Source: Candidatus Omnitrophota bacterium
GTDB taxonomy: Bacteria > Ratteibacteria > UBA8468 > B48-G9 > DTJG01
Direction of reading: 5' to 3'
DNA: 64,000 nucleotides
Assembly: GCA_023484085.1 (NCBI GenBank)
Contig: JAMDAS010000002.1
Span: forward strand, 536-64,535
A model generated the notes under the pieces. It had not been told where the DNA came from and ran no database searches. It was given only the letters and a program-made list of their open reading frames with translations. The translations under genes and the position numbers were made by a program. Shown piece by piece: positions 17,389 through 36,731 of the stretch; positions within the stretch are counted from its first letter, which is position 1, and the number at the start of each line of letters is the position of its first letter.

Positions 17389-18549
17389 TCAAGGTTGTAT
17401 AATTTTTTTCTTTACAGGAATTGGAGGGAAATATATGAAAAGATGACTTATACGGTCACTTTCTCCCAGGTAAATTTCTCCATTTACACCGGTACATGCA
17501 GAAGAAAACTCATAACCATGCCAGAAATTTTCTGTTGCAGCGGAGGGCATACCGAGCTCTACAAGTGAAGACGTATCAGGGTCGTAAGAGAAAAGATGAG
17601 CCATTCCCTCTTTTTCACCGCTTATACCATAAATGATGCCATCATTTCCTGCTGTCATTGCCGGGATACCCGTTTCAGACGTTACCTTCCCGATGGTTTT
17701 TATAAAGTTTGTCTCGGGGTTAAAACTAAATAAAACGCCATCACCAGAGCCTCCGCCATAAATCAGCCTGTCGTATTTATTGAATACTGCAGAATCAAGC
17801 TTATTGTAAAGATCTCTTCCTGTAATAGTCGGGATTGAAACAGAAAGCTTTGTAAATTTGTTATCCAGTATACTATATTTATAAAGATGGCCAAAAGCAC
17901 CACAACAATATACGTTCCCTTTATCATCCAGGACAAGCGTTTCAGAAAAAAGTCCATTTTTATCTATCTGACATATTAAATTCACTTTTTTATGCTCAAT
18001 GTCAAAGGAAAAAAGAGTACCTGTTTTTCCGGTTATTCCATAGATTAAATTTCGGGCACTGTCAATTATTAAAGAACAGATGTATTCCCCTGTAACAGGA
18101 ACAAGAAGTTTTTCAATAGTCCCACAATCTGTTTTCCCTTCAGACATTCTGTCGTTTTTGGTGTTATATGCAAATATGTATCCTTCCCCATTTCCTTCTG
18201 AAATACCACCATAAATAATCCCGTTTTTACCTGCTACAAGGGATTTTTTTACTGACGTTGTTCTTTCTATTACTCCTATGTCACAGACACCATCCGCTTC
18301 AGGACCCGGGTCATAATAAAAAAGGTGACTTTTTTTTCCTGTTGTCGCACCATATATTTTGCCATTATCCCCCAGACATAAAGAGGTTATGGCACATTCA
18401 CCAGGTGGTATTGGTTCTGAAAGTGATTGGTGAATTCGTAAAACCCGGTTTATCATAAATCCGTTTTTTATGGTTGTTGAATATTTTTCAACCGGATAGT
18501 CGGGTTTTATGGGCCAGGTTCTTTTTTCCAGGTCTTTTTCAAGCATCAT
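17389..18549 (-). CDS. Hypothetical beta-propeller repeat protein
   Basis: 386 aa with about seven repeats of G-x-IYG-(x)n-G-x-LF-x-YD/P (GKIYGATTGKKSHLFYYDP, NLIYGITGKTGTLFSFD, GIIYGISGEKEGMAHLFSYDP...). Confidence 0.7.
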   Translation of the reverse strand: MMLEKDLEKRTWPIKPDYPVEKYSTTIKNGFMINRVLRIHQSLSEPIPPGECAITSLCLGDNGKIYGATTGKKSHLFYYDPGPEADGVCDIGVIERTTSVKKSLVAGKNGIIYGGISEGNGEGYIFAYNTKNDRMSEGKTDCGTIEKLLVPVTGEYICSLIIDSARNLIYGITGKTGTLFSFDIEHKKVNLICQIDKNGLFSETLVLDDKGNVYCCGAFGHLYKYSILDNKFTKLSVSIPTITGRDLYNKLDSAVFNKYDRLIYGGGSGDGVLFSFNPETNFIKTIGKVTSETGIPAMTAGNDGIIYGISGEKEGMAHLFSYDPDTSSLVELGMPSAATENFWHGYEFSSACTGVNGEIYLGESDRISHLFIYFPPIPVKKKIIQP

Positions 18550-18550
18550 T

Positions 18551-19834
18551 TTACCCCCAGGGTTTTATATCCTTAAAAGAAAAGACTTTTTTATTCTTTG
18601 ATGCGCTGTCAGGTCTGTAAATATACATGCCCGTAGGAGATTGCCCTGCATCTGCAAAATATAAATTACCATAAAAATCCTGGGTTGCACTTGCGATATG
18701 TCCTGACTTATGCTCTCCAAATACGAGCGGACAAACTTTTTCTCTTTCAAGGGTTTTGGGATTTAATCTTATTATCCATCTATTTTGAGGTTCTTCCCAG
18801 CCAAGCTTCATGACAAAATATAGATTTCCATCCATGCCAAAAACCAGTCCTCTTACCTGGCATTCTTCCAATGCCGTATCTGTTTTAAAATCCCGGGGAC
18901 CAAAAGCCCTGCCTAAATCCTCCATAATACCTTCTTTATCAGTATAAGGATTATATTTCCATATACGGGATTCATATCCCCAGTCAGTTCCATAAAAACA
19001 GGACCGGTCCGGCGCAGGGACCACATCATAAGGAACGTTATGCCATCCCTGCCTGTAAGATTCATGCGGGCACTTTACGTTAAGTTTTCTTATCTCATCT
19101 GTATCAGCATCGCATTTAAGAACGAACCCATAATCATCTGTTGTGTAGGCATTTCCATATTTATCAAGAAAGACCGCCTGGGGGTTTATATCCCCTATTC
19201 TGCCAAGGTCCATGTATTTGCGTGAGTTTATATAAAAGACGTAAAAATGATTTCTTGGCCAGGTGATTCCATATAGTTTCATTCTTTTTTCATCAAAAGC
19301 AAGGGCGCGGCTGCCTTCTTTTTTGGGCCCTGTCCCAAAATTTTCAATCGTGTTTGTGGATGGATTGTACGTAAAAATATAGGAGCATGGAAAATATCTT
19401 TTCATATCGTCCCACGAGTTCCATGGCCGCCATATAGGGTCTCCCAGTGGAGGACCTGAAGCATGTGTTGCACAATAAAGGAGCCCATTACCTGCCGGCA
19501 AAAGACAATAATGTATTTTTGACTGGGTGGCATGACCATTATCCGGCGGTTCACCCACTGCCGGGCCCACCTCAATAAGGTACTCCAGGGTTTCTGTTTC
19601 AGGGATGTAACGTAAAATAAAAACACTTAATCCACCTGTGGATTCACCACATGCAGCAATATAAACGTTTCCATCAGCACCCGTGCATAATCCCCACGTA
19701 GAATCATGTCTTGGTAATTTATCAAAACGCAGGTCCTCTATCTCTCCACCAAGTGCTTTATTTCTTGTTTGTTTTTGCATGGCTTTGCCTATTTGTTTAA
19801 TGGTATATTTTAGTTTTTTATTATCATATGTCAA
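18551..19834 (-). CDS. Hypothetical beta-propeller repeat protein (distant paralogue of the downstream gene)
   Basis: 427 aa with repeated GNVY/GLLY/GNLYF blade motifs. Only 1 nt separates it from the next ORF. Confidence 0.65.
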   Translation of the reverse strand: MTYDNKKLKYTIKQIGKAMQKQTRNKALGGEIEDLRFDKLPRHDSTWGLCTGADGNVYIAACGESTGGLSVFILRYIPETETLEYLIEVGPAVGEPPDNGHATQSKIHYCLLPAGNGLLYCATHASGPPLGDPIWRPWNSWDDMKRYFPCSYIFTYNPSTNTIENFGTGPKKEGSRALAFDEKRMKLYGITWPRNHFYVFYINSRKYMDLGRIGDINPQAVFLDKYGNAYTTDDYGFVLKCDADTDEIRKLNVKCPHESYRQGWHNVPYDVVPAPDRSCFYGTDWGYESRIWKYNPYTDKEGIMEDLGRAFGPRDFKTDTALEECQVRGLVFGMDGNLYFVMKLGWEEPQNRWIIRLNPKTLEREKVCPLVFGEHKSGHIASATQDFYGNLYFADAGQSPTGMYIYRPDSASKNKKVFSFKDIKPWG

Positions 19835-21530: not shown

Positions 21531-22183
21531 AAACCGTATGCCTTATCTCAGGAGGACTGGACAGCTTTGTTTCTGCAGGAATTGCCAGGAAAGACGGCTA
21601 TGAATTATACGGACTGACTATTGATTATTCACAAAAACATAAAAAAGAGATTGAATATGCAAAAAAGATAGCCGGTTTTTTGAACGTGGATGAACATAAA
21701 ATCATTACCATTGACCTTTCTTTTCTTTCTTCAGCCCTTACATCAAGAAACATAAAAATCCCTGAAAAACCAGTTACGGGTATTCCTGTAACCTATGTTC
21801 CCGCAAGAAATACGATTTTTATTTCTCTTGCTCTTGCATATGCTGAAAATATTAACGCAGATGCCATCTACTTAGGGATAAATCACATTGATTATTCCGG
21901 TTATCCTGACTGCCGGCCTGAATATATAGAGGCATATCAAAAGCTTATTAACATAGCCACACAAAAAACAGTGAAGGGGGGAAGGATTTTATTAAAAACC
22001 CCTCTTGTCAGCCTGTCAAAATCAGAAATTATACTGATTGGAAACAGCATGCATCTTGATTTTTCATTAAGCTGGTCATGTTACAAGGGAGAGGAAAAAG
22101 CATGTGGGAAATGTCCCTCCTGCGTAATAAGACTGAAAGGCTTTGAAAAGGCGGGACTAAAAGATCCTCTTGAATATAAATAA
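21527..22183 (+). CDS. queC: 7-cyano-7-deazaguanine synthase QueC
   Basis: SGGLDS PP-loop and a C-terminal zinc motif C..C..C.C (SCYKGEEKACGKCPSC). A 4-nt overlap with queE. Confidence 0.92.
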   Translation: MKTVCLISGGLDSFVSAGIARKDGYELYGLTIDYSQKHKKEIEYAKKIAGFLNVDEHKIITIDLSFLSSALTSRNIKIPEKPVTGIPVTYVPARNTIFISLALAYAENINADAIYLGINHIDYSGYPDCRPEYIEAYQKLINIATQKTVKGGRILLKTPLVSLSKSEIILIGNSMHLDFSLSWSCYKGEEKACGKCPSCVIRLKGFEKAGLKDPLEYK

Positions 22184-22204
22184 AAACCCCTCAATAAATA
22201 TTTC

Positions 22205-22356
22205 GTAAATACTCAGTGAACGGTGTTTGAAATAAGTTTGGATTGTCTTTGAAGCTTTGTTTGAAAGAATGTTTTTACAAAGAAGAGAAGAGCAATCCAG
22301 AACTTATTTCCTACTTCAGCTCAGGAAATTATTAACACTGTTTAGTGAATATTTAC
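22205..22356 (+). repeat. Long-palindrome intergenic repeat, copy 1 (MITE/REP-like)
   Basis: 152 bp. Termini GTAAATACTCAGTGAACGGTG / CACTGTTTAGTGAATATTTAC are inverted repeats. Inner arms AAGTTTGGATTGTCTT / AAGAGCAATCCAGAACTT pair with two bulges. Related copies lie at 41355-41511 and 60865-60997. Confidence 0.85.
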
Positions 22357-22365
22357 AATATTTTT

Positions 22366-22393
22366 TTGACAAAAAGTATTATTGGTATAAAAT
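22366..22393 (+). promoter_or_regulatory. Sigma70-like promoter for the TraB-to-ComF operon
   Basis: TTGACA (22366-22371), a 16-nt spacer and TAAAAT (22388-22393), about 60-80 nt upstream of the first ORF. Confidence 0.45.
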
Positions 22394-22450
22394 AATAAAA
22401 ATTTTTTATCTTTATTTTCTGGAGTAATAATTGACTGGGACAATTATTAT

Positions 22451-23626
22451 GTGGAGGATATTTTGTTGTCTAAAATGCCCAGTTTACAAAATACGCTGAA
22501 GAAAAATGCAAAAACAATTTTCATAGTCGTCATTATCCTGTTTGTCTTTATAACACTGTTAACGTCCCGGTTGACGGCAAACAGGCAGAAAATACCCCGA
22601 GCCAACGAAAACGTAACCGGAATACTCGGTATTCAGGGGGAAGAAGGTCAAATCTATAACAAAGCCATTGAATCCCGGGTTAACAACGTATCAAACAATT
22701 TAGAACAATTTCAGAACCAGCTGGACGCCCTCCAAAAACAAAACCAGGCACTGACGGACCAGAACAAGCTTTTGAATGCTGAATTGAGACACATCAATGA
22801 CAGAGTAGATAAAAAAATGAATGAGAATCTCAACGAGGCAATGAATAAAATAGAAACAAAAATATCAAACATTATTCCCACCCGGCAGGTTTCTGCTCCA
22901 TCAACTCCACAATCAGAAAGACTTCAAATTATCAGCTTCCCGCAGAAAAAACAGGAACAGACATCTTACAGTCAAAAAGAACTATATCTTCCGGCAGGTT
23001 CTTTTGTAAAAGGTACGTTATTAAGCGGTGTGTTCGCCCCGGAGAACAAATCAAATCCTCTGCCTGTGGTTTTTTCAGTTGACCAGGCGTTTAATGGTCC
23101 TGCAGGAAGTAAAATCCCGCTTAAAGGAATGCTCGGTATAGGAAAAGCACAGGCGGACATAAATTCAAGCAGGGCGGTTATCCAGGTTGTCAGACTTGCA
23201 TACGTATTCCCTGATGGAAAGGTCTGGGAAAAGAATGTTAATGGTTGGGTCTGTGGTCCTGATGATATTCTTGGAGTAAAAGGAAAGATAATTCAGCAAA
23301 CAGGCAGGGCTTTGGCAGGGGCATTCACTTCAGGGTTTCTTTCCGGGGCATCACAGGCTTTATCACAGGCACAAACATCCACACAGCAAACCATTTCAGG
23401 AACACTTGAAACAAATGTGACAGGAAACACTACAAAGTATGGATTATATTCAGGGCTTGCCTCTGCGGCAGGAAACCTTTCAAACTATTATTCCGGTATG
23501 CTGAATCAGATTATCACAGCAATCAAGATCAGGGCAGGGACACCAATACAGATAGTAATGGAAAAAGGAGTATCAATTGAAAGCGGCAACGATTATAACA
23601 ATCATGGGTATTCTTATCATCAGTAG
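22451..23626 (+). CDS. traB: TraB/VirB10 (TrbI family)-like T4SS core protein
   Basis: Short cytoplasmic N-terminus, one TM helix (IFIVVIILFVFITLLTS), a coiled coil (LEQFQNQLDALQKQNQALTDQNKLLNAEL), then a TrbI-type beta domain (LPAGSFVKGTLLSGV...GKAQADINSSRAVIQVVRL...GTPIQIVMEKGVSI). The true start may be TTG 22466 or ATG 22475. Confidence 0.8.
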   Translation: MEDILLSKMPSLQNTLKKNAKTIFIVVIILFVFITLLTSRLTANRQKIPRANENVTGILGIQGEEGQIYNKAIESRVNNVSNNLEQFQNQLDALQKQNQALTDQNKLLNAELRHINDRVDKKMNENLNEAMNKIETKISNIIPTRQVSAPSTPQSERLQIISFPQKKQEQTSYSQKELYLPAGSFVKGTLLSGVFAPENKSNPLPVVFSVDQAFNGPAGSKIPLKGMLGIGKAQADINSSRAVIQVVRLAYVFPDGKVWEKNVNGWVCGPDDILGVKGKIIQQTGRALAGAFTSGFLSGASQALSQAQTSTQQTISGTLETNVTGNTTKYGLYSGLASAAGNLSNYYSGMLNQIITAIKIRAGTPIQIVMEKGVSIESGNDYNNHGYSYHQ

Positions 23627-23975
23627 CGGCTGTGCGGGTATATCTTCTACAACAAGCCGGCAGTCATCAATGGAAAAGCTCTACAGGCACGCAGAAAAAC
23701 AGGGAAAATATGACACAATAAAAGCAATAGCCCGGCAATTAAAAATAAATAAAGCCCTGGGTTATGTAAAGCCCTATGTGCCTGTAATAAATCCACCAGT
23801 GGTCAAAAGAGCGTGGATTGTTCCCCATCAGACAAAAAATGGTGCCCTGGTTGGCGGATATTGGGTATACATAATAGTTAAAAAGCCTTCCTGGTACATA
23901 GATACACCACAGATGAATATACCCGCAATTACAATTCCTTACGTAAATAAAAATAATAACCGGGGAACAAAATGA
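23577..23975 (+). CDS. traV: TraV-like outer-membrane lipoprotein
   Basis: TTG start 6 nt after AAAAAGGAG. Lipobox ISSGC. The C-terminal motif PPVVKRAWIVPHQTKNGALVGGYWVYIIVKKPSW resembles the F-type TraV signature (R.WI.P..D..G.L.....VY.V). Confidence 0.65.
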   Translation: MKAATIITIMGILIISSGCAGISSTTSRQSSMEKLYRHAEKQGKYDTIKAIARQLKINKALGYVKPYVPVINPPVVKRAWIVPHQTKNGALVGGYWVYIIVKKPSWYIDTPQMNIPAITIPYVNKNNNRGTK

Positions 23976-26374
23976 TAACAGAAAAAATATGGGAAAATTT
24001 ATTTGACGAGGGACAAGGCATAGCGGATTTTCTGCCATATTACAGCTTTGAAGATGATGTATTTACATTTGTTGATGGAAGTCTCGGAAAAGGGCTTATT
24101 CTTTCACAGATACCCATTGAACTTAAAACAGATGCAGAACTTGATGTTTTGGCTGCACAGGTTGAGACCCTTATAACCCGCTTCAGACCCGGCTTCTCTT
24201 ATCAGTTTCTACTGCTTTCTATTCCTGACGTCTCAGAAAAATTGGATAAATACTTGTCATACAAAGAAGCGGAACCTTCAGGCCAGTCAAAAATATTCTC
24301 ACAGGGAAAGATTGAAAACATAAAAAAAGGGGCAAACGGGTTTTTCAGGGAAGGCGCAACAACGTATTCTACAAGAGAGATCCATCTGGTTTTTACAATC
24401 AGGTTTTTCCCTTCCCACGGCAAAATGGATTTAGACAGTTTTCAACGGACACTGCAATCAGACAGACAGGCACTTTTAGACCACTATAGCGAGCTATGCT
24501 CTGTTTTGCAGAACCTTAATCTTGGATACAGGGAAATTGACGGAACAGTTCTGGTAGAAATTTTAAGCCGGATGTCCGCTCCAGACAGGCTCCCCCGCAA
24601 TTATAATCCTTCAAAATCTATCAGGCAGCAGATTTTTCTTTCAAATCCTTTTGTAGATGGCGAAGGTTTTGTTCTGGATAAAACAAAGACCATCATTATT
24701 TCACTGATAGAACTTCCTTTAAAAACGTTTCCGGGAATGTTTTGTGTGGGAAGAGAAAAAACTTCTGTGATTGATTTGGCAAGCAATATTGCAATGATTG
24801 TGAACATAGCCTGTAATGACCAGACGGAAGAGATGGAAAAGGTAAAAAGAAAAAGCTCTTTTGCGTTTATCCACAAGACAAATATTCTCGGGGACAGGTC
24901 CATAGAAGCTGACCTTATCAAGAAAGATACTGACACGGTCATAGAAAAAGTGTTTGGACAGGGCAGGAAAATTCTTAACTGTTCCACACATTTTCTTGTC
25001 TGGGAAAACAAAGAAAGCGGAATTGAGAATGAAATAATCAATACGCTCCATTTTCTTGGCTGCGAGGGAGTAAAAGAGAATTTGATAGGAGCAGGCCTGT
25101 TTCTTGCATGCCTTCCTTTTGGATATGACTATAAATTTGAAAAGTTTTATCAGAGAAGTCACAAGATGTTGTCTGATAACGCCAGTGATATTATTCCGGT
25201 CTGGGGTTCCGGCACAGGTTCAAATACACCGGCAGCTATTTTTACAAACAGGCAGGGAAGAGTGTTTTTCTTTGACCCGTTTGACAGCAACAGTCCGCAT
25301 TTTCTTACTGTAGGAATAACCGGGGCAGGGAAAAGTGTGTTTTGTAATAACCTTATTATGGAAGGTCTACGGCTCGGTTCTCATATATTCGTAATTGACA
25401 GGGGTGGCTCATACCAGAGAATTTGTGAAGTAAATGGGGGGCAATACGTTGAAATAGACCCGAATAATCCGACATGTATAAATCCTTTTTCCTCTTCTCT
25501 TAATCCTGAAAATCTTGCCTTTTCGGTTATGCTTGTTTCAGAAATGGCAAGCGGAGGAGAAGATACAGAAAGACTGAGAAGAGAAGAAAGAGCAATCATC
25601 CAGGGAGCAATACAAAATGCCTACCATGAAGTGGCAGGCAGACAGGTAACCCTTTCTGACGTGGCGGAACAGTTAAATAAAGATGAACTACCTGGTAAAA
25701 GACTAATCCTGAAATTGTTGCCATTTTTAAAAAAAGGCCATTATGGCGGATTTTTTGATGGACAGAACCAGCTGGATATCACAAATAATTTTGTGGTTTT
25801 TGAATTAGGGGCGCTTGGCGGATGGAAGGATTTACAGACAGTTCTTTTACTCGCCTTAATGTATCTTCTTACGGGTAAGGTGGCAGGAATGAAAGACATC
25901 AGGAAATACCTTTTGATAGACGAGGCATGGACTCTTCTTAACACGGAAAACACAGCCCGGTTTATAGAAAACGCTTTCAGGACCTTTAGGAAATACAGGT
26001 GCAGCGTAGGGGCAATCTCACAGCAGCTCCAGGACTTTTTTAATACAAAGGCGGGTAATTCCATTATGGCAAATGCAGTCAACAGGATTTATCTTGCGCA
26101 GAATCCTGAAGTGGTTGAAAGTATGAAAGAACAGCTCGGTTTGAATGAAATACAGGTAAAAACGTTAAAAAGCATAAAAACTATCAAGGGCAGATATTCT
26201 GAAGCAATGATAAAAACAGATGCGGATTCCGGTATAGTAAGACTGATTCTTGACCCTGCAAGCTATTGGCTGTTTACAACCGACCCCAAAGACATTTCAA
26301 GACTTAATGAGGCGGTTAAACAAACAGGGAGCCTTGAAAAAGCCATAGAAACACTAACAAAGGAGCGGGTATGA
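23972..26374 (+). CDS. traC: TraC/VirB4-family T4SS ATPase (F-type TraC-like)
   Basis: 800 aa. TraC_F_IV-like N-terminus (DFLPYYSFEDDVFTFVDGSLGKGL), Walker A GITGAGKS, Walker B LLIDEAW. ATGA overlap with traV. Confidence 0.88.
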   Translation: MITEKIWENLFDEGQGIADFLPYYSFEDDVFTFVDGSLGKGLILSQIPIELKTDAELDVLAAQVETLITRFRPGFSYQFLLLSIPDVSEKLDKYLSYKEAEPSGQSKIFSQGKIENIKKGANGFFREGATTYSTREIHLVFTIRFFPSHGKMDLDSFQRTLQSDRQALLDHYSELCSVLQNLNLGYREIDGTVLVEILSRMSAPDRLPRNYNPSKSIRQQIFLSNPFVDGEGFVLDKTKTIIISLIELPLKTFPGMFCVGREKTSVIDLASNIAMIVNIACNDQTEEMEKVKRKSSFAFIHKTNILGDRSIEADLIKKDTDTVIEKVFGQGRKILNCSTHFLVWENKESGIENEIINTLHFLGCEGVKENLIGAGLFLACLPFGYDYKFEKFYQRSHKMLSDNASDIIPVWGSGTGSNTPAAIFTNRQGRVFFFDPFDSNSPHFLTVGITGAGKSVFCNNLIMEGLRLGSHIFVIDRGGSYQRICEVNGGQYVEIDPNNPTCINPFSSSLNPENLAFSVMLVSEMASGGEDTERLRREERAIIQGAIQNAYHEVAGRQVTLSDVAEQLNKDELPGKRLILKLLPFLKKGHYGGFFDGQNQLDITNNFVVFELGALGGWKDLQTVLLLALMYLLTGKVAGMKDIRKYLLIDEAWTLLNTENTARFIENAFRTFRKYRCSVGAISQQLQDFFNTKAGNSIMANAVNRIYLAQNPEVVESMKEQLGLNEIQVKTLKSIKTIKGRYSEAMIKTDADSGIVRLILDPASYWLFTTDPKDISRLNEAVKQTGSLEKAIETLTKERV

Positions 26375-26790
26375 AAAAGATAATAATACTTTTTGTTTTT
26401 TGGACTGTTTTAACTGCAGCCGGGGCTTTGAAAGCACAAAATGTTTCTGAAAATATCACAACAGATACGGCTATAAAACATCATAAACATCCAGGTTTTG
26501 TTGATTTTTTTCAGGATATTTTTTCCCCGGGAAAAGAAAAAGAGAAAAAAGCATATAAAGAAGGGTATAAGGCAGGCGTGAAAGAACAATTAAAGAAATT
26601 CAGGGAGAACTTTGTAGATAACCAGGTCCCTTATTATTACTGGCAATCACCTATTGTCCAGAAAGTAAAAATCCCGGCGCAGCTCGTTAACGGGTTTTTT
26701 ATACCATCACACTATGAATACGTAATTATCCAGCCGGGCAAATGGCAGAAGGAATATGCCTATCCCATTGCAAAAGGAGAATCCCGATGA
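26371..26790 (+). CDS. Secreted protein with a TraV-like C-terminal motif
   Basis: Signal peptide (AAGALKAQ). The C-terminus SPIVQKVKIPAQLVNGFFIPSHYEYVIIQPGKW aligns with the motif of the 132-aa lipoprotein. ATGA overlaps on both sides. Confidence 0.6.
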   Translation: MKKIIILFVFWTVLTAAGALKAQNVSENITTDTAIKHHKHPGFVDFFQDIFSPGKEKEKKAYKEGYKAGVKEQLKKFRENFVDNQVPYYYWQSPIVQKVKIPAQLVNGFFIPSHYEYVIIQPGKWQKEYAYPIAKGESR

Positions 26791-28418
26791 AAAGAATAAT
26801 AATGGTTTTTTTAACCGTGATTGTTTTAACTGCACCCGGAACTTATTTAAAGGCGCAGAAATTAAGCAATAGTGAAAAACAGGAAATAATCAACAAGGAG
26901 TGGAAACAGCTGATGGGGCAATACCATCAGGCTATAAATAATAAAAAGTTTCAGGAACGGATTAAACAGGAAGGCTATAAACGGACCAATAAACCCGTAC
27001 CGGAGAGTAAAGGTATTCAAAACCCCTGTCCGATAACAAAAGTTATACTGCCGGAGCCTGTTTTTTTAAACAAAATTATGTATATCAACATAGGCTCAGC
27101 GCCATTAAGAATCGTACTATCTGAATTAGCCACACAGCTCGGAGTACCCATAATAACGAAAAGCGGGGTTAACCCTGATATGAACGTACAGGGAAATTTT
27201 AATGGCCAGACAGCAAAAGACGTTCTGGATAATCTTTGTAATCTTCTGGATTACGCCTGGGATGTGAAAAAAGGGAAAATTTATATCAGTAAATTTGGCT
27301 CAGAGATGTTTCAATTATCTGTCCCATATATATCAACGCAATTTTCCAATGAAATAGATTTATCAGCAAACGGTATAACCGGTTATTCGGCAGGAGCGTC
27401 CAGCCCTTATAATAACATGCCTGACACAACAGGCACAGCAGGTAATACATCCACCTTGAATAATAATTCTTCCGGGAATGGCAACTCCGGGCCCAACTCT
27501 TTTGTCCGGATATATGCAGACAAAGTGTCTTTATATGAAAATATAAATGAGAACCTTAAAAGCCTTATCAGCAAAGACGGAAAGTTTGCAATAAACAATG
27601 AAGCGGGAACAATCTTTGTTTTTGACAGGGTACGGAACCTGAAGAGAATTTCAGAATATTTTAAAACCCTGAACAAAACCCTTTCAGAAGAACTTCTTGT
27701 GAAAGCAAAAGTTGTGGAAGTAACGCTTAATAAAGGATTTCAGGGTGGTGTTAACTGGAACCTGCTTACTTCAGAGTCAGGTTTTCAGACAGATTTCAAC
27801 CTGCTCTCATCAGGTCCTGTTTTCCTGCTGCGAAGCAGACAGCCGACTACAACAGGCACAACAACAAACGGAATGGAGGAAATAATCAATCTATTAGGCA
27901 GCCAGGGAAAGATTTCTATTCTTTCAGAACCCCAGATAACAGTCCTGAATGACCAGCCGGCAATTATCCAGATGGCAGACATTGTTTCCTATATAGCCCA
28001 GTCAAGCCAGTATATAACCCAGGTAGGGAGCCAGACAGCCATAACACCAGGGGAAGTAATGGATGGAGTAAACATGACAATAATTCCCAAGATTTCAAAG
28101 CAGGGGATATTTCTTAACGTAATGCCATCCGTAACAATGGTAAAACAGATACAAACCATAAACACGGGAAATGGCACTGAAATCCAGTTACCACAGGTTG
28201 CCTCAAGAGCATTGAACACGTCTATAAGAATTAAGGATGGGGATATTATTGCAATAGGCGGGCTTATTTTTAATCAAAAAGACAAGGAGGAACAGGGAAT
28301 ACCTGTTTTATCAAAAATACCTGTTATAGGGGCTTTATTCAGGCAAAATACAGATACAACAAGCAAAGATGAGTTGCTGATATTTTTAACAGCAAGGAGA
28401 ATAAAGTGGAGTATGTGA
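26787..28418 (+). CDS. Secretin (GspD/PilQ superfamily) outer-membrane channel
   Basis: Signal peptide; N0/STN-like domain (LRIVLSELATQLGVPIITKSG..AKDVLDNLCNLLDYAWDVKKGKIYIS); S/T/N/G-rich linker; N1-like domain; C-terminal secretin domain (ILSEPQITVLNDQPAIIQ ... GGLIFNQKDKEEQGIPVLSKIPVIGALF). The start is at ATG 26787 after AAAGGAGA. Confidence 0.88.
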   Translation: MKRIIMVFLTVIVLTAPGTYLKAQKLSNSEKQEIINKEWKQLMGQYHQAINNKKFQERIKQEGYKRTNKPVPESKGIQNPCPITKVILPEPVFLNKIMYINIGSAPLRIVLSELATQLGVPIITKSGVNPDMNVQGNFNGQTAKDVLDNLCNLLDYAWDVKKGKIYISKFGSEMFQLSVPYISTQFSNEIDLSANGITGYSAGASSPYNNMPDTTGTAGNTSTLNNNSSGNGNSGPNSFVRIYADKVSLYENINENLKSLISKDGKFAINNEAGTIFVFDRVRNLKRISEYFKTLNKTLSEELLVKAKVVEVTLNKGFQGGVNWNLLTSESGFQTDFNLLSSGPVFLLRSRQPTTTGTTTNGMEEIINLLGSQGKISILSEPQITVLNDQPAIIQMADIVSYIAQSSQYITQVGSQTAITPGEVMDGVNMTIIPKISKQGIFLNVMPSVTMVKQIQTINTGNGTEIQLPQVASRALNTSIRIKDGDIIAIGGLIFNQKDKEEQGIPVLSKIPVIGALFRQNTDTTSKDELLIFLTARRIKWSM

Positions 28419-29404
28419 AACAACAAAACAAGTATTTTGTTTTTTGTGAACCCAAAATTCAAAAAGCGGTAAATGAAGAATCCCTGGAAAAAATACAGGA
28501 TAACAATAATTTTTTCTGTTATGAAAAAATTGATGAAGAACTATACCAGGTATTTATTTTGCCTGTATCCGTAATAGATAAGATAAAAAAACAGACAGAG
28601 CTAAGCAAAACAGTTCTTATTCCCTATCAAACCTCTGTAAGAAATCTGCTTACCAATTCAGAACCCGCCCTGTTTCTACACGCTTTAGATGATACAACAC
28701 TTATAATGACAGGCATAAAAGGAAAAGAGGTTTCACAGGCTACCCCGGTTCCAATCAAAAACATAAAAGAAACTGTGAAATTTTCTATCAACGACTATAA
28801 AACAACTTTCAGGTTGGAAAGCATGTCTGTTATTACAAATAGCAGGGATATAGCAGAACAGTTAGAAGGGATAGAGGTAAAGACCATTTCCTTTCCCCAT
28901 GCCCTGCCTGTCCAAAACACACCTGAATTTATTCTTCCCCAACACATTGAATTCAAGAAGACAGAAGCAGAAAACAAACAAATCCGGATGATTGGCGGGA
29001 CAGCTGTATTTGGTGTTTTACTTGCCGTTGCAATTTTTTACCAGAACAGGACAGGACTTACAAAGGTAATACAACAAAGAAACATGCTGCAAAAAAAAGT
29101 GACGATAATGCAGACAGCATATACAAACTACCAGCAGCAGGACACGTCAAAATACTTTTCATCCCGGCAAAAAAACAAAATGGTATCTCTGATTTTAAAA
29201 TTATCACACCTGCCACCGGGATACACTTTTAAGAATTTAAAAATAAAACGGATGCCATCCGGAAATTACATGGCAGATGTTTTTATATCCATAGCTGCCC
29301 CGGGAATGTCTTCACAGCCTTTAAGAATTCTGTTCCCTGAAGGAATAATAGATCCGGTTTTTCAAAACCAGGGGCAAATATATAGAATCAGACTTGGAAT
29401 TTAA
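28406..29404 (+). CDS. Bitopic inner-membrane protein with GspL/PilO(R64)-like architecture
   Basis: GTG start 5 nt after AAGGAGA. About 190-aa cytoplasmic domain, a single TM helix (MIGGTAVFGVLLAVAIFY), and about 120-aa periplasmic domain. The call rests on architecture only. Confidence 0.45.
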   Translation: MEYVKQQNKYFVFCEPKIQKAVNEESLEKIQDNNNFFCYEKIDEELYQVFILPVSVIDKIKKQTELSKTVLIPYQTSVRNLLTNSEPALFLHALDDTTLIMTGIKGKEVSQATPVPIKNIKETVKFSINDYKTTFRLESMSVITNSRDIAEQLEGIEVKTISFPHALPVQNTPEFILPQHIEFKKTEAENKQIRMIGGTAVFGVLLAVAIFYQNRTGLTKVIQQRNMLQKKVTIMQTAYTNYQQQDTSKYFSSRQKNKMVSLILKLSHLPPGYTFKNLKIKRMPSGNYMADVFISIAAPGMSSQPLRILFPEGIIDPVFQNQGQIYRIRLGI

Positions 29405-29406
29405 AA

Positions 29407-30081
29407 ATGAACATAAAGTTTGGGAGATTATACCAAACAGAAAACGGATTCAGGGGTATGCTTGGAGGAGTTCCTGTCCTGGCAAAAAAACAGGAAGACA
29501 GACTGATTATATTATTGGATACCCAAAAAGTAAAAGAAATCTCAGGAAAAGAATTTATCTCTTATCCTCTATTCTATTTTATTCCCCCGGCAAGTATCTA
29601 CAAGGATAAAATCAGGAGAGATATATTAGACGTCAAGATAAACGGCAGTCTGAAAAAAATTCCGGATTTGGTGGAACTACTTATTACAACGTATCACGGG
29701 AATCCGTTACTGTCAGAAACAGACCTGCTTATTCCATGCCCCCATTCTGCGGATAACAAGATAGAACTAACAAGATTATTATGTATAAGTATGGGGGAAA
29801 AAATAGAAAAACCTGCCCTGTTAAATACCCTGCAAAGGACCAGGGATTTTGAGTTCCCGCAGGTGGAATTATCCCCGAAAGAAAGATTAGAAAACGTAAA
29901 AGGGGCTTTTAAAATAATCAATGGCGATGGACTCAGAGGAAAAATATGTCTGCTTGTGGATGACATAATAACAACAGGGGCAACGGCAAATGAATGTACC
30001 AATCTTTTATTGTCCGCAGGAGCGAAAAAAGTATATCTTATCACTCTGGCACAACCCCTTAAAAAATCCTATTTTACCTGA
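29407..30081 (+). CDS. comF: ComF family phosphoribosyltransferase-fold protein (ComFC-like, no N-terminal zinc finger)
   Basis: PRT motif LLVDDIITTGATANEC, preceding ERLENVKGAF. It lacks the 4-Cys N-terminal finger usual in ComFC. Confidence 0.8.
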   Translation: MNIKFGRLYQTENGFRGMLGGVPVLAKKQEDRLIILLDTQKVKEISGKEFISYPLFYFIPPASIYKDKIRRDILDVKINGSLKKIPDLVELLITTYHGNPLLSETDLLIPCPHSADNKIELTRLLCISMGEKIEKPALLNTLQRTRDFEFPQVELSPKERLENVKGAFKIINGDGLRGKICLLVDDIITTGATANECTNLLLSAGAKKVYLITLAQPLKKSYFT

Positions 30082-30376
30082 AAAATTTTATATCTGAAAG
30101 CGGGGTGCCTGTTCTTTCCTCCAACTGGTTTTTTATATCCTGTTTTCTTTTTTTTAATTCCATCATCCATGCAGAGCTTGTTACCCTGATTAATAAAGTT
30201 TTTTTATCCAGCCCTATTACTTCGGTGAATACAGACTCATCAGGGAATAATTCTATCCATATTTTTTCCCAGTCAATAACAGGATTTATCCTTTTAGTTT
30301 CTGTTTCCGTATTATTATTTATGTTTTTTAACACCCTTGCCAGAATTTCGGATATTTTTTCTGTATTATCCACCAT
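30074..30376 (-). CDS. dciA: DUF721/DciA-like protein
   Basis: 100 aa directly downstream of dnaN, with the DUF721 pattern (W..I......T.V..L....LLIRVTSSAWMMEL......I...L). Confidence 0.7.
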   Translation of the reverse strand: MVDNTEKISEILARVLKNINNNTETETKRINPVIDWEKIWIELFPDESVFTEVIGLDKKTLLIRVTSSAWMMELKKRKQDIKNQLEERTGTPLSDIKFFR

Positions 30377-30381
30377 TATTA

Positions 30382-31476
30382 TCAGGGCTTGATGGGCATT
30401 ACTATATATACGTAATTTTCATTTCCTTCAGGAGCTATTTGGGCCGGTTTTGTCGGTTCCGTAAAAGAAAGCCTTATGTTTTCCTCTTCAACAGTTTTTA
30501 AAAAATCTATCAGATATACAGGATTAAAAATCATAGTAACGTCCGGACCTGAATATTCTATCTTGATTTTTTCCTCTCCTAATCCTATATCAGGGCTTTC
30601 AAGGTTGAGAACAAGAAGGTTTTGCCTGAAATGCATGTATAAAGAGTTAAAATTCAGACTTGATAAGAGATTTATACGGGAAAGGGAAGAAAAAAGCTCT
30701 TTTGTGTTTATTTTTGCATAATTGAGCTTTCCTGATGGAAATACCGTGTTATAGTTGGGAAATTCCCCTTCAAGAAGTTGGGATGTTAATAATATCCTGT
30801 CAGTACTGAAACTTATCTGATTTTTTGATACAGCCACTTTCATTTTTTCATCCTTTACAAGGTAGGGGAAAACCTCCAAAAGTTTATAGGGGAGTAAAAT
30901 TTTTAATAAGTTTTTGTTGGATGTTTCTTTTTTTATTAAACCCATACGTCGTGTATCCGTTCCCACCATTGTTAATATTCTGGTATCTGAATTAAACAAA
31001 GCACCCCTGAAATATACACGGGCTTCCTGGGGATTTATACAATAACAGGTTTTTTTAATCATATCTACAAAATCTTCGGAAGATAAAACAAAGGAATTGG
31101 CTTCTGAAGAAATATCCTGCTCCGGAAGCTTGGGGAAATCCTCAATTGACATTGTAAGAAGTTTATATTGAAAATTTTTATTTTCAATTATTAAATAATT
31201 ATCTTTTGTTATCATTTTTATTGAGGATTCAGGAAGTTCTTTTATCAGGGAAATAAAATTTTTCCCTGGAATAAGAATACTGCCTTTTTCCTTGACAGAA
31301 CCTTCCATGAATATTTTTAAGGTTAACTGAAGGTCTGTTGTTGTAAATGATACCCCTTCTTTTTTCGCCTCCATTAAAATTCCGCCCAAACTTACGATTG
31401 GGGGTTTTAAAGGAAGCACTTTACCCATTTTTTCTATAATTCCCGATAATTCTTTTCTTTCTATTATTAATTCCAT
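30382..31476 (-). CDS. dnaN: DNA polymerase III beta sliding clamp
   Basis: 364 aa with three-domain clamp-like periodicity, located directly downstream of dnaA; C-terminal YIVMPIKP. Confidence 0.9.
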   Translation of the reverse strand: MELIIERKELSGIIEKMGKVLPLKPPIVSLGGILMEAKKEGVSFTTTDLQLTLKIFMEGSVKEKGSILIPGKNFISLIKELPESSIKMITKDNYLIIENKNFQYKLLTMSIEDFPKLPEQDISSEANSFVLSSEDFVDMIKKTCYCINPQEARVYFRGALFNSDTRILTMVGTDTRRMGLIKKETSNKNLLKILLPYKLLEVFPYLVKDEKMKVAVSKNQISFSTDRILLTSQLLEGEFPNYNTVFPSGKLNYAKINTKELFSSLSRINLLSSLNFNSLYMHFRQNLLVLNLESPDIGLGEEKIKIEYSGPDVTMIFNPVYLIDFLKTVEEENIRLSFTEPTKPAQIAPEGNENYVYIVMPIKP

Positions 31477-32897: not shown

Positions 32898-35800
32898 TTA
32901 TCCAGTGACGTTTTTACCACAGCAATGTTTATATTTTTTACCGCTACCACAGGGACAGGGCTGATTTCTTCCGGTTTTTTGTGCGGATTTTACAGGCTGT
33001 CCTACAGGTTCAGGAATGTTAGGGGCAACAGGAACGGATTCCTGTACCGGATGGCCTGATTCCTGTGACTGGATAGATTCAAACTGGCCAAATTCCTGGT
33101 GAACAAAAACCGAGGGGGCAAAAATCTTTTTAGGTTTTTGTATTTGCTCAAAAGGTGCCGCCTGTATTTTGAAAAGAGCAGAAAGAATCTCTATTTTTGC
33201 TGAAGTAAACATCTGCTCAAACATTAAAAACGCCTCCTGTTTGTATGCAACAAGAATGTCTCTCTGTGCATAGGAGCGAAGATTAATTCCTTCTCTAAGA
33301 GCATCTATTGACCGTAGATGCGATTTCCATTTTGAGTCAACTTCCTGTAAGAAGACGTATTTGATGATTTCTTCAAACAAAGGGCCGGACTGTTCTTTTT
33401 TCCTGTTAAATAATTCCCTGGATTTTTTCTTTGCTTCCTCCATAAGATTATCCCTCCAGAAAACCTGTTCTTTTGTATCGCCAGGTATGGAAGAATCAAT
33501 CTCTATGCCAAAAGTGGTTTTTAATATACCTGAAAGCTTTTCCGGGTGCCACTCCTCTGTTTTTGTTTTTTCGTTCATGAATTCATTGAAAAAATCATCT
33601 ATGGTCTCATCTATAAAAGTCAAAATATACTGTTCTATGTTGACAGTACTCTCTAAAATATCCCTTCTCAACTGGTATATAACCTTTCTTTGCTGGTTTA
33701 AAACGTCATCAAAATCAATAAGATGTTTTCTTATTTCAAAATTTCTTCCCTCAACACGTTTTTGGGCCATGTTAATCTGTTTTGTTATTATAGGATGCGT
33801 GATTTTTTCACCCTCAGGAAGTTTTCCCATAATACCCATAAGTCTTTCCGAGCCAAAGATACGAAGCAGGTCATCCTCAAGAGAAAGATAAAAACATGCA
33901 GAACCAGGGTCTCCCTGCCTGCCTGCGCGGCCTTTTAATTGATTATCCACCCGGCGTGCCTCGTGTCTTTCTGTTCCCATGATGTGAAGTCCGCCTAATG
34001 AAACTACCTTTTCATGGTCTTTTTCCCATGGTTTTAAATTTTTTTCAAGAGTTTCGTTAAATATAATTCTAAACTCTTCAGGACTTTTTTCCATTTCCTC
34101 CCTTGCTGTTTTCCATTCCTCTTCCGTCGCACCGTGTTTTTTCTCATACTCGTCCCTTGCAAAAGAAAGCTCCTTTTCATATTGAGAATGTAGATTTTCA
34201 TAATCTTCAAGGGCTCTGTTATAATCTTTTTTTCTTTCAGAATAATCTTTTCCACCAAAGAAAGAAAAAAGGTTTGTTTCCAAAGCATCCAGTCCATAAA
34301 TAAAATTTTTATATTCTGCCTGAAAGTTTACAAGAAAATCCCTGACAAATTCTTTGCCCTGCTCAACGTTTAATTCAAAAACTTTTTTTCCTGCATCTTC
34401 AAGAAAATCCATGAGTTTTTTACTCCGCCCGGAAAAATCCTTGAATGAGGCGGAATTTTTGATTTCATCCGTAAGGACAGGGGTAATGCTTTCCTTGTAG
34501 CCCTTTATGCATAAAAGCAGTTCCTCAACGAGCTGCTCTAACTCTTTTTTTAAAAAAGGTATTTTTTCAGGAGGATTTTCACAGAGAAGAATAATCTGGT
34601 TTGTTTTTTCTTCAATGTCTTTTCTTATAAAGATTCCGGCATTTTTTCTTATAAACTCTTTTGAACCTTCGTAATCACGGTATGTTTTGCTTAATGCCTC
34701 TTTGAATTCTTTTAATTGTTCAGGTTTTTTTTGATATTCAACCTGTGCTTTTTTAAGCATGTCATCAGCTTCCTGGTGTTTTTCCTTTAGTTTTAAAATC
34801 CTGGGTTCGGCACGTAAATATTCTTCACCTGCTTTTGCCATAAAAATACTTCTTTCCATGTCTTCTCTTGCTTTTTTGTCTGTTTCTGCAAAATTGTTTT
34901 CTTTTTCTGTAAGAAAGCCTTTTGCTTTTTCAAGAGAAGGCAGGAGCTTTTTCTCAATATTATCCTGGGTCTTTTTATAGGCATCTTCTATTTCATTTAA
35001 AATCTCATGAAATAGTTTTATCTTCGTTTGTGTTTTTGTTGTCGTTTTTGATTTTTGGGACCAGATGGTTCTTATTGTTTCCTCCCTGGCAAGAACTTCA
35101 GGGTTTCCGCCAAGAATGATGTCTACGCCTCTTCCTGCCATCTGGGTTGCTATTGTAACTGCTCCGGGTTTTCCTGCCTGTGCTATAATGGCTGCTTCTG
35201 CCTCGTGATTTTTCCCGTGAAGGACCTGGTGCGGGATGTTTTTATGTCGCAGCATTCTGCCTAATTTTTCTGCTTTTTCTATGGAGACAGTCCCCACGAG
35301 AACAGGTCTTGCGTTTTTATACATCTGTTCTATTTCATTCACCACTGAATTAAACTTTTCTTTTTCCGTTCTATATATCTCATCGTTGGATTCCGCTCTT
35401 TTTAATGGTTTATTTGTTGGTATGGCAATTACGTTTAGTTTATAGATTTCCTTGAATTCGGAAGCTTCCGTAAGTGCCGTGCCAGTCATACCTGCAAGTT
35501 TTTTATAAAGTCTGAAATAATTCTGGAAAGAAATCGTGGCAAGGGTCTGGTTCTCACTTTCAATACGGACGCCTTCCTTGGCTTCTACTGCCTGGTGGAG
35601 CCCGTCGCTCCATCTTCTGCCGGGCATGAGCCGTCCTGTAAATTCATCCACAATTATTACCTCGCCATTTTTTACAACATAATCCTTATCTCTCCTGGAA
35701 TAGGTGTGGGCCCGGAGTGATTGATTGATAAAATGAATAATGTCTGTATGGGCTCCATCATAAAGATTTTCTATGTTAAGGAACCTTTCACATTTTCTCA

Positions 35801-36731
35801 GTCCGTCATCTGTCAGGGAAACAATCTGATTTTCCTCATCCATAAGATAGTCATTGTCTTTGTTCAGCTTGCGGACAATCTTATCTATGTCATAATAAAG
35901 ACCTACGGATTCCTCGGAGGGACCTGAAATAATCAAGGGTGTGCGCGCCTCATCTATCAGGATACTGTCAACCTCATCAACAATTGCATAATTTAAATTT
36001 CTCTGGACAAGAGCGTCTTTGGTTATAGCCATGTTGTCCCTGAGATAATCAAAACCAAATTCACTTCCGACGCCATAGGTTATGTCACAGGTGTAAGCAT
36101 CCTTTCTTGAAACCGATCTCAGATTAAGGAACCGGGAATCCGCCGGCAGATACGCGGGGTCAAAGGTAAAAGCAGAAATACCCGGCTGCTCATTGAGCTG
36201 TGCATAAGATACAATACAACCCACTGAAAGGCCAAGATTATGATAAACCGGCCCCATCCACTGGGTATCCCTTTTGGCAAGATAATCATTGACGGTCACC
36301 AGGTGACAGCCTTCCCCGGTTAGGGCATTCAGATAAAGCGGGAGAGTGGCTACAAGGGTTTTCCCCTCACCTGTTGACATTTCACTAATGTTCCCATAAT
36401 GCAGGGCTATCCCCCCAAGAATCTGGACGTCAAAATGGCGCATGTTTATAAATCTTCTTGCAGATTCTCTTACGAGAGCATAGGCCTCAGGCAGGATATC
36501 ATCCGGGGTTTCTCCTTTGGAGAGCCTGTCTTTGAATTCCGCTGTTTTTCCTTTCATCTCATCAGGTGATAGACTTTTTACCTTTTTCTCCAGCTCATTA
36601 ATCCTCTGGAGAAAGACAATCATTTTCTCCATAAATGCATACCTGTCCCTGTTTAAAATCCTATTGATAAAAAGTTTTGTCCCGGGATTAAGTTTTCTTA
36701 AAGAAGAAAGAAGGGAATTATAATAATCCAT
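32898..36731 (-). CDS. secA: Preprotein translocase ATPase SecA with a very large K/E-rich insertion
   Basis: 1277 aa. Walker A [8 protein letters not shown], DEAD-like [59 protein letters not shown], and a C-terminal zinc motif [14 protein letters not shown]. Confidence 0.95.
   Translation of the reverse strand: [1277 protein letters not shown]

Follow-up and report, generated by a model that had tools for sequence, protein, structure and literature searches.

A chromosomal cassette joining F-type type IV secretion components to a type IVb pilus-like secretin in an Omnitrophota-lineage bacterium

We analyzed a 64,000-nucleotide stretch of contig JAMDAS010000002.1 (the window) from a Candidatus Omnitrophota bacterium, which contains seven consecutive forward-strand genes (22451-30081) encoding TraB, TraV, TraC, a small protein p4, a secretin, a bitopic protein p6 and a ComF-like protein. 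An earlier note, drawn up from the letters and open reading frames (ORFs) of this DNA, had observed that parts of a type IV secretion system (T4SS) are combined here with a secretin, and this observation is confirmed. The cassette is not a complete F-type T4SS or a complete type IVb pilus, nor does it encode a canonical ComF. We class it as a reduced derivative, with an integrated secretin, of the composite T4SS and type IV pilus (T4P) machinery of conjugation. In our assessment it probably encodes a functional, domesticated T4SS-secretin conduit that works without a pilus. T4SSs and the secretin machines, namely the type II (T2SS) and type III (T3SS) secretion systems, T4P and filamentous phage, are treated as separate solutions to crossing the outer membrane. 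In the family described below a secretin is genetically joined to a T4SS through a TraV-like module, and the link outlasts the loss of the pilus motor and of both pilins.

All seven ORFs lie on the forward strand where the note had placed them, and the junctions it had described are present as well: a 50-nt overlap between the TraB and TraV genes (23577-23626), 4-nt ATGA overlaps at 23972, 26371 and 26787, a 13-nt overlap between the secretin and p6 genes (28406-28418) and a 2-nt gap before the ComF-like gene (29404/29407). All seven genes are translationally coupled. For the secretin we prefer the start at 26787 over the longest-ORF start at 26742, because the orthologue from a related genome (L008) aligns from residue 1; the alignment of the L008 TraB begins at residue 5, and the true start of TraB may lie a few codons past its GTG. 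The TTGACA-N16-TAAAAT promoter read from the sequence is the best sigma-70-like match within 22100-30500, agreeing at 11 of 12 positions and lying about 58 nt ahead of TraB. The AT-rich DNA of this region yields many such matches, 31 against an expectation of 21.

Table 1. Features of the cassette in the window (positions are those of the 64,000-nucleotide stretch).
Feature	Coordinates	Strand	Size	Description or basis
Sigma-70-like promoter candidate TTGACA-16-TAAAAT	22366..22393	+		Consensus match only, read directly
TraB (VirB10/TrbI family)	22451..23626	+	391 aa	Transmembrane helix, coiled coil, C-terminal beta-barrel domain
TraV lipoprotein (VirB7-like)	23577..23975	+	132 aa	SSGC lipobox
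TraC, F-type VirB4 ATPase	23972..26374	+	800 aa	Profile matches, Walker motifs
p4 ("TraV2"), putative secreted TraV paralogue	26371..26790	+	139 aa	Profile-profile comparison; putative partner module of the secretin
Secretin (type IVb pilus PilN/BfpB/MshL-like)	26787..28418	+	543 aa	Signal peptide, N-domains, C-terminal secretin domain
p6, bitopic inner-membrane protein	28406..29404	+	332 aa	PilO2/BfpC/GspL-like fold
ComF-like phosphoribosyltransferase	29407..30081	+	224 aa	Phosphoribosyl pyrophosphate (PRPP) loop LLVDDIITTGAT; non-canonical N-terminal ~100 aa

Profile searches in Pfam and NCBIfam backed every motif assignment that had been made by eye, and left p4 and p6 without a family. TraB matches TrbI (PF03743, 1e-21) and the F-type TraB of NCBIfam (2e-19); its best solved relative is the TraB of F/pED208 (7spb/7okn, 4e-12), and it shares 74% identity with the L008 orthologue. 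TraV exceeds the gathering score of PF09676 (1.1e-8), and its family alignment displays invariant S17-G18-C19 residues and an invariant C-terminal W..H..G.W..W motif. TraC matches TIGR02746 over residues 60-798 (8e-116; 387.8 bits, under the equivalog cutoff of 567) and exceeds the Pfam cutoffs of P-loop_TraG (2e-44) and TraC_F_IV (7e-17). The family alignment shows no variation in its GAGKS (Walker A) and DEAW (Walker B) residues. It is an F-type VirB4/TraC ATPase as found in T4SSs of the mating pair formation F class (MPF-F). Of the MPF-F outer core, which comprises TraB, TraV and TraK, the window contains TraB and TraV only.

The secretin belongs firmly to its superfamily, with a Pfam domain score of 121.7 bits against a gathering cutoff of 27.5 (PF00263, 3e-35). 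Its best subfamilies are MshL (2e-57) and the type IVB PilN (TIGR02520, 7e-44), both under their equivalog cutoffs, the best solved relative is BfpB (9u5s, 3e-21), and its relatives on plasmids are mostly annotated as PilN family. By these matches it is closest to the type IVb pilus secretins PilN and BfpB, and a PilN/BfpB-type component of type IVb pilus machinery is present in the cassette. The N0-like region (residues 104-167) yields only weak FecR_C and T3S_N0 matches. BfpB in 9u5s is deposited with 17 chains, and the central TraB cone of F is also 17-fold (PMC8770708); a symmetry match between the BfpB class of secretins and the TraB ring is conceivable.

Relatives of the cassette were pooled from gene contexts, a GTDB genome scan, a p4-seeded metagenome scan and local annotation. 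TraC homologues above ~38% identity are rare and found in metagenomes only. The core TraB-TraV-TraC-p4-secretin-p6 is conserved as a unit and recurs in ~70 independent loci, which fall into four settings that we call types A to D. Type A (~50 loci in Omnitrophota metagenome-assembled genomes, some labelled Planctomycetales) is a rigidly co-linear operon of 22 genes: TraG_N, two unknown genes, a type IV coupling protein (T4CP), a TrbC pilin, TraL, TraE, a TraK/CagX-like protein, TraB, TraV and TraC, then p4, the secretin, p6, two small genes, T2SSE (MshEN), T2SSF and a PilS-type IVb pilin, followed by two more pilin-like genes and TraU. Its secretin-to-pilin stretch is co-linear with the PilN-PilO2-PilP-ATPase-platform-pilin...PilV order of conjugative thin-pilus operons. 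Type B (9 loci, on contigs of 23-48 kb where not fragmentary) is a mobile element with the order pilin, TraL, TraE, TraK, TraB, TraV, TraC, secretin, p6 and two unknown genes, surrounded by PDDEXK and Rad52 recombination genes, an AAA5/VWA pair, a DPBB lytic transglycosylase, SNase, HU, an integrase and a methylase. T2SSE, T2SSF and type IV pilins are missing from it, and searches with Pfam and PHROGs found neither a T4CP nor a relaxase. Type C has the order TraB, TraV, TraC, p4, secretin, p6, ComF-like gene, and includes the window, L005 and L008 (apparently one organism), L160 and L161. Type D (L003) consists of TraC, p4, secretin, p6, a small gene, T2SSE and T2SSF and lacks TraB and TraV. 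A secretin is absent from ordinary F-type loci (L004, L006).

The fuller relatives revise one reading of the locus. The secretin had been taken to occupy the position of TraK, and these relatives carry a TraK/VirB9-like gene too: in them traC is followed by an inserted block that resembles a type IVb pilus operon and starts with the secretin (then a PilO2-like protein, two small genes, T2SSE, T2SSF and a PilS pilin), and TraK is absent only in the reduced form seen in the window. The rarity of type C rests on protein searches with TraC and p6, because the pattern used in the metagenome scan, I[VEA]NG[VFM][FY][IV]PxH, cannot match the type C p4 (LVNGFF, IVNGLF). A viral origin was considered and rejected: a scan of IMG/VR with the TraC profile gave only two marginal P-loop matches, and PHROGs added only a generic pIV secretin match and two families of unknown function.

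Some individual relatives have peculiarities of their own. The type B elements (L001, L002, L009, L155-L159) carry phage-like recombination genes, and the one in L009 is binned as a Micrarchaeia archaeon, probably by mis-binning. The type D locus (L003, 9024-18969) adjoins a CsgG/DUF4810/GNA1162 lipoprotein cluster and an RHS/Tc-toxin gene, and could be a PAPI-1-like chimera of VirB4 and T4P. In L014 (68-1149, reverse strand) the type A operon is directly preceded by an IS200-type transposase and by a Mg-chelatase/ComM-like gene truncated to its C-terminal 167 aa, which suggests that the element may have inserted in comM, a known integration hotspot.

The 139-aa p4 matched no Pfam family, TraV included, and its homology became visible only in profile-profile comparison. 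The p4 family aligns with the TraV family at 92% hhalign probability (E 6e-7, 88 columns), against 0.65% for an unrelated negative control, and a direct phmmer comparison of TraV with p4 gives an E-value of 8e-4. These comparisons indicate that p4 is a second TraV-like protein, most likely a TraV paralogue. The window p4 has a signal peptide only and no cysteine, whereas the p4 proteins of type A are lipoproteins with a lipobox. The p4 gene always lies directly upstream of the secretin gene, and in type B loci the conserved p4 motif forms the N-terminus of the secretin polypeptide itself. A TraV paralogue that is fused to the secretin in type B argues for a physical link between the T4SS and the secretin. 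In one type A locus (L013, 4173-5942) the p4 motif is found at residues 450-525 of a 589-aa ORF that starts inside the end of traC, which might represent a large N-terminal extension, a fusion, or an artefact of assembly or frame.

The GspL/PilO-like architecture claimed for the 332-aa p6 is borne out at the level of fold. An AlphaFold2 model from a 9-sequence alignment (mean confidence, pLDDT, of 84; a model from 3 sequences was unusable at 51) displays a cytoplasmic actin-like alpha/beta domain, a transmembrane helix running into a long helix, and a periplasmic domain of two alpha-beta-beta units. Foldseek places a generic actin-fold protein first, followed by the cytoplasmic domains of PilO2 (PilO2Bp of the Burkholderia pseudomallei type IVb pilus, 4byz), BfpC (3vhj) and GspL/EpsL (4pht, 1yf5, 1w97), each with a probability of 0.98-1.0 and E-values of 3e-3 to 1e-2. 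By sequence, p6 matches nothing in NCBIfam (PilO2 included), in Pfam or in a tblastn search of plasmids, and homology to PilO2 was rejected at this level, as hhalign against four plasmid PilO2 proteins or positional equivalents gave a probability of only 0.6%. The protein forms one family with the post-secretin protein of types A, B and D (hhalign 98%, E 1e-14). Only 7 representatives of this very small family were found in 1.8 billion proteins.

The last gene of the cassette had been called comF, a claim that holds in part. The best phosphoribosyltransferase family of its product is TIGR00201 comF (2e-13), at 50.6 bits against a cutoff of 233.55, followed by GntX (9e-12) and PF00156 (6e-8; 32.7 bits, above the cutoff of 26.3). 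The D-D-I-I-T-T-G-A-T residues of the PRPP loop are invariant across the four type C lineages, as expected of a phosphoribosyltransferase. The first ~100 residues of the four orthologues contain no CxxC pairs that could form an N-terminal Cys4 zinc finger. Such a four-cysteine zinc finger at the N-terminus is a defining feature of the ComF/ComFC family (PMC9005727). We therefore call the protein ComF-like only. Its gene trails p6 by 2-3 nt in all four lineages, among which the protein is 61-67% identical. We also considered comF as an ancestral neighbour of dciA-dnaN-dnaA, and rejected it: three relatives with the order secA-dnaA-dnaN-dciA have neither comF nor the cassette at this site.

Neighbour-joining trees (100 bootstraps) place type C as sister to type B for TraC (100), TraB (80) and the secretin (76). 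The secretin-linked TraC proteins are monophyletic relative to ordinary F-type TraCs in 92 of 100 bootstraps; for TraB, ingroup monophyly is recovered in 45. The congruence of the TraC, TraB and secretin trees implies that the module evolves as a unit. From these trees the form in the window appears to share an ancestor with the motor-less form of mobile elements, and the cassette is most readily understood as a reduced derivative of a widespread composite operon, not an isolated invention.

Comparison with L008 reveals how the reduced form has been maintained. The two organisms are well diverged (84% identity in DnaA, 76% in DnaN), and synonymous divergence (dS) is saturated at 1.3-2.1, with values above 1.4 where TraB, TraV, TraC, p4 and the secretin are set against DnaA and DnaN. 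The ratio of non-synonymous to synonymous divergence (dN/dS) is 0.105 for TraB, 0.141 for TraV, 0.086 for TraC, 0.128 for p4, 0.091 for the secretin and 0.227 for the ComF-like protein, with 0.122 for DnaN and 0.107 for DnaA as comparison. Values like those of dnaA and dnaN mean that selection maintains the reduced cassette and that it is not in decay. None of the seven ORFs is disrupted in either the window or L008, and the visible parts in L160 and L161 are intact as well. Downstream synteny (ComF-like gene, dciA, dnaN, dnaA, secA) is common to the window and L008. Upstream synteny breaks precisely at traB, and in both genomes housekeeping genes lie to either side.

The cassette had been described as chromosomal and outside any mobile element, and its surroundings agree. 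It is preceded by lgt, queE and queC and followed by dciA, dnaN, dnaA, a long secA, ksgA, hypF and ahcY, and no integrase or transposase flanks it. Farther genes include tig-clpP-lon-carAB-guaA-accC, mnmE, a fusA-like gene, ruvC, lepB, tilS, mltG, rseP and one restriction-modification pair; apart from the cassette, the 64-kb window is housekeeping chromosome. The nearest named relatives of its DnaA are from Candidatus Omnitrophica/Omnitrophota (54-62% identity). The reported lack of relaxase, coupling protein (TraD/VirD4) and pilin holds across the whole window. Six-frame phmmer searches with queries from the fuller relatives found no pilin, TraL, TraE, TraK, TraU, TraG, T4CP, T2SSE, T2SSF or PilS in any frame, and TraK queries of both type A and type B found no TraK/VirB9 homologue. 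The window likewise yielded no F-specific TraU, TraW, TraN, TraF or TraH, and no type IVb prepilin or prepilin peptidase. Of the set VirB2-4 plus VirB6-10 that makes up a ComB-type system, only equivalents of VirB4, VirB7 and VirB10 are present.

The window encodes neither kind of pilin, and the machine would therefore be a pilus-less conduit and not a mating apparatus. Types B and C lack T2SSE, T2SSF and type IV pilins while keeping the secretin and p6, which argues that the secretin does not simply serve a linked T4P. The ancestor was probably a composite conjugation apparatus of Omnitrophota and their mobile elements, in which an F-type T4SS was physically coupled to a secretin of the type IVb pilus kind; the window would retain only its envelope-spanning core, domesticated from conjugation. 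We infer that the parts assemble physically. The secretin would form the outer-membrane pore and, with TraK lost, the sole ring in that membrane. TraB, as a VirB10-like protein, would span the periplasm and bridge the two membranes, and TraV together with p4 may tie it to the periplasmic N-domains of the secretin, with p4 as the adaptor that docks these domains onto the TraB/TraV core. The PilO2/GspL-like p6 and the TraC ATPase would then make up the base at the inner membrane and in the cytoplasm. TraK is widely described as secretin-N-domain-like. The F core complex offers an analogy for these contacts: TraV connects a C13 ring, in which its C-terminal domain pairs with TraK, to a C17 cone formed by TraB (PMC8770708).

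As for the direction and substrate of transport, the ComF-like partner and the origin-proximal site point to uptake or handling of DNA or of other macromolecules derived from a host or prey, and import of such molecules would be the most attractive function. That the cassette imports DNA specifically is possible, if doubtful. We are still more hesitant about the most far-reaching proposal: that TraB, TraV, TraC, the TraV-like adaptor, the secretin and the GspL-like protein form an unrecognised class of pilus-less trans-envelope machine in which VirB4 works through a secretin pore, and that beside oriC in ultra-small bacteria of the Omnitrophota lineage it imports DNA or nucleotides, together with the ComF-like protein, from the environment, prey or a host, as the diderm counterpart of the essential T4SS of Patescibacteria.

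Several explanations compete with a self-contained conduit. The cassette could be one locus of a complete conjugative system, with T4SS and type IVb mating pilus as in IncI R64 or PAPI-1, whose remaining parts are encoded elsewhere and which would still carry out conjugation: the window represents 64 kb of this genome, type A relatives hold all the relevant genes including T4CP in one operon, proteins of the p6 kind normally bind a T2SSE ATPase, and Omnitrophota genomes often encode T2SS and T4P genes (10.64898/2026.06.07.730766). Such scattering would nevertheless be exceptional given the rigid co-linearity of ~55 type A and B loci in single operons, and the upstream synteny break precisely at traB between housekeeping genes, the failure to find even pieces of those genes in any reading frame of the window, and the lack of pilus motor, T4CP and relaxase (Pfam) in the sister type B make it unlikely. 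The invariant TraC-p4-secretin-p6 adjacency in ~70 loci of three architectures, the congruent trees, the TraV homology of p4 with its fusion to the secretin in type B, the translational coupling of all cassette genes, and purifying selection on TraB, TraV and TraC equal to that on the secretin all speak against a related idea: that the secretin and p6 belong to a T4P, a T2SS or a competence pilus, and that TraB, TraV and TraC are an adjacent, unrelated remnant. We consider this idea distinctly unlikely, even though both proteins are of type IVb pilus or T2SS ancestry, types A and D continue with T2SSE, T2SSF and PilS-type pilins in the canonical PilN-O-P-Q-R-S order, and secretin-dependent competence pili do act together with ComF.

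An inert, decaying remnant of an integrated conjugative element is barely credible. The cassette plainly represents one truncated stretch of a longer ancestral operon, with the genes that flanked the core on both sides gone, and its nearest relatives sit on mobile elements with integrases; the selection analysis nonetheless effectively refutes decay, since the ORFs are intact despite saturated dS and their dN/dS of 0.09-0.23 is on par with dnaA and dnaN. Catalytic motifs, gene overlaps and the promoter are also retained, and the conserved downstream synteny contradicts a variant in which chimeric assemblies caught a recently transferred element. A pilus-less device for export or contact, which would release DNA or effectors through the secretin or serve as an adhesion or attack structure against prey or a host, is quite improbable in our view. 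Secretins normally transport outward and T4SSs are mostly exporters; the gonococcal genetic island T4SS secretes DNA without a pilus (PMC12857230), the pI/pIV pair of filamentous phage extrudes virions, the M13 pIV family is among the matches of the type B secretin, and Omnitrophota are suspected predators or epibionts. The window, however, contains no relaxase or T4CP to feed DNA into such a device and no linked effector-like genes, and the sole extra conserved gene is ComF-like, with characterised ComF acting in uptake (PMC9005727).

The pilus-less conduit that we favour also faces objections of its own. The cassette lacks VirB3/TraL, VirB6/TraG, VirB8/TraE and VirB9/TraK. VirB3, VirB6, VirB8 and VirB9 are required in known T4SSs for docking of VirB4 and for building the channel. 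The view of the genome spans 64 kb, and genes for pilins, a T2SSE ATPase or ComEC could lie outside it. The assignment to ComF is weak, with a score under the family cutoff and no zinc finger, and the four type C lineages form one clade, so that the link to ComF amounts effectively to one evolutionary event. The likeness of p6 to PilO2 and GspL is one of fold only, at Foldseek E-values of 3e-3 to 1e-2, and secretin monophyly relative to plasmid PilN outgroups is recovered in only 1 of 100 bootstraps. The host organisms are uncultured.

Among described systems, the MPF-F T4SS of F/pED208 shares TraB, TraV and TraC homologues in the same order, and the fuller relatives also have a TrbC-type pilin, TraL, TraE, a TraK-like protein, TraU, TraG_N and T4CP in F-like order. 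The window differs in lacking pilin, TraL, TraE, TraK, TraG, TraU, other F-specific genes, T4CP and relaxase, in possessing three proteins that F does not have, namely a secretin, a second TraV-like protein and a GspL-like protein, and in its chromosomal position off mobile elements. IncI R64 and PAPI-1 are established cases in which a T4SS is accompanied by a type IVb pilus with its secretin, and for PAPI-1 a chimeric machine of VirB4/VirD4 and T4P has been proposed, in which T4SS ATPases cooperate with the outer-membrane parts of the pilus (PMC12857230). The pilL-V genes of R64 and those of PAPI-1 resemble our loci in that the secretin is nearest to PilN/BfpB, p6 has a PilO2/BfpC-like fold, and type A follows the order PilN-PilO2-..-ATPase-platform-PilS-..PilV-like. 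By contrast, their pilus genes form a separate complete operon, whereas the type A block sits inside the tra operon after traC; the secretin here carries or is preceded by a TraV-like module; and types B and C retain the secretin and p6 without pilus motor, platform or pilins. For type A the best reading is a conjugative system of Omnitrophota that follows the general R64/PAPI-1 kind, with an unusually interleaved pilus block. Filamentous-phage pI/pIV and the T2SS proteins GspD/GspL likewise couple an inner-membrane ATPase complex to a secretin, the type B secretin matches the M13 pIV PHROG, and p6 resembles GspL. The ATPase of the window, however, is VirB4 and not Zot/pI or GspE, and phage structural genes and pseudopilins are absent.

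Machines that have been repurposed from conjugation for import offer another comparison. VirB4-dependent import of DNA is known for Helicobacter pylori ComB and archaeal Ced (PMC13395361, PMC9905601), and ComFC is required for transport of single-stranded DNA in H. pylori (PMC9005727). ComB and archaeal Ced/Ted are chromosomal, relaxase-less and VirB4-containing like the cassette; ComB, unlike the window with its VirB4, VirB7 and VirB10 equivalents only, has homologues of VirB2, 3, 4, 6, 7, 8, 9 and 10 and no secretin. In Patescibacteria (candidate phyla radiation, CPR), relaxase-less chromosomal T4SS genes lie by dnaA, dnaN and ksgA, comF is linked in class ABY1, and import has been proposed (PMC12102498). 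The resemblance to the window extends to the relaxase-less, chromosomal and origin-proximal character, the comF link in ABY1 and the ultra-small, host-dependent hosts, a lifestyle that is suspected for the type C host. The CPR systems, however, are monoderm and MPF-FATA-like, with VirB2/3/6-like parts and no outer-membrane components, whereas the window encodes a diderm, secretin-based system of F-type descent: the likeness is one of convergence, not of orthology. A VirB4-like ATPase also lies 3-5 kb from dnaN-dnaA in many CPR genomes that we scanned (L038-L078, e.g. L049 10001-17000), an arrangement already published (PMC12102498).

The composition of the cassette had been presented as unprecedented, and this stands only for the cassette itself: the literature we covered, which was incomplete and thus offers no proof, contains no description of it (two 2026 Omnitrophota genome preprints included), while the underlying pairing of T4SS with type IVb pilus and secretin is known (PMC12857230). 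Within the same incomplete coverage, we found no account of a TraV-like adaptor or fusion on a secretin, of a secretin and p6 kept with TraB, TraV and TraC after loss of the pilus motor and pilins, or of an origin-proximal, ComF-linked cassette of type C. A field-wide T4SS review from 2025 mentions neither secretins nor Omnitrophota (PMC12857230). The architecture and the link between TraV and the secretin are likely to surprise specialists, and the case parallels that of the CPR. If the parts assemble as proposed, they would be direct evidence that the outer-membrane cores of T4SSs and secretins are interchangeable, and would lend substance to the chimeric T4SS/T4P model of PAPI-1. Type C, whose host is a suspected host-dependent nanobacterium, and the Patescibacteria together suggest that conjugation machinery was domesticated convergently to acquire macromolecules. 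This has implications for the feeding and gene exchange of ultra-small bacteria.

The remainder of the window holds several features unconnected with the cassette. Its SecA (32898-36731, reverse strand) is unusually long at 1277 aa owing to a large lysine- and glutamate-rich insertion; a long SecA is also found in L097 (1270 aa), and those of L095 and L096 measure 916-923 aa. An N6/N4 DNA methylase is paired with a MjaI-family restriction endonuclease at 42800-44672, and a second, apparently orphan N6/N4 methylase lies at 289-1107. At 17389-19834 on the reverse strand, two adjacent proteins of ~400 aa display repeated beta-propeller-like motifs; one weakly matches DUF5074 and Tachylectin, and the other matches no family. 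The region 11000-16000, which spans lepB, tilS, a GNAT acetyltransferase, a CinA/PncC-domain protein and mltG, has a low GC fraction of 0.28-0.30, compared with ~0.37-0.40 elsewhere.

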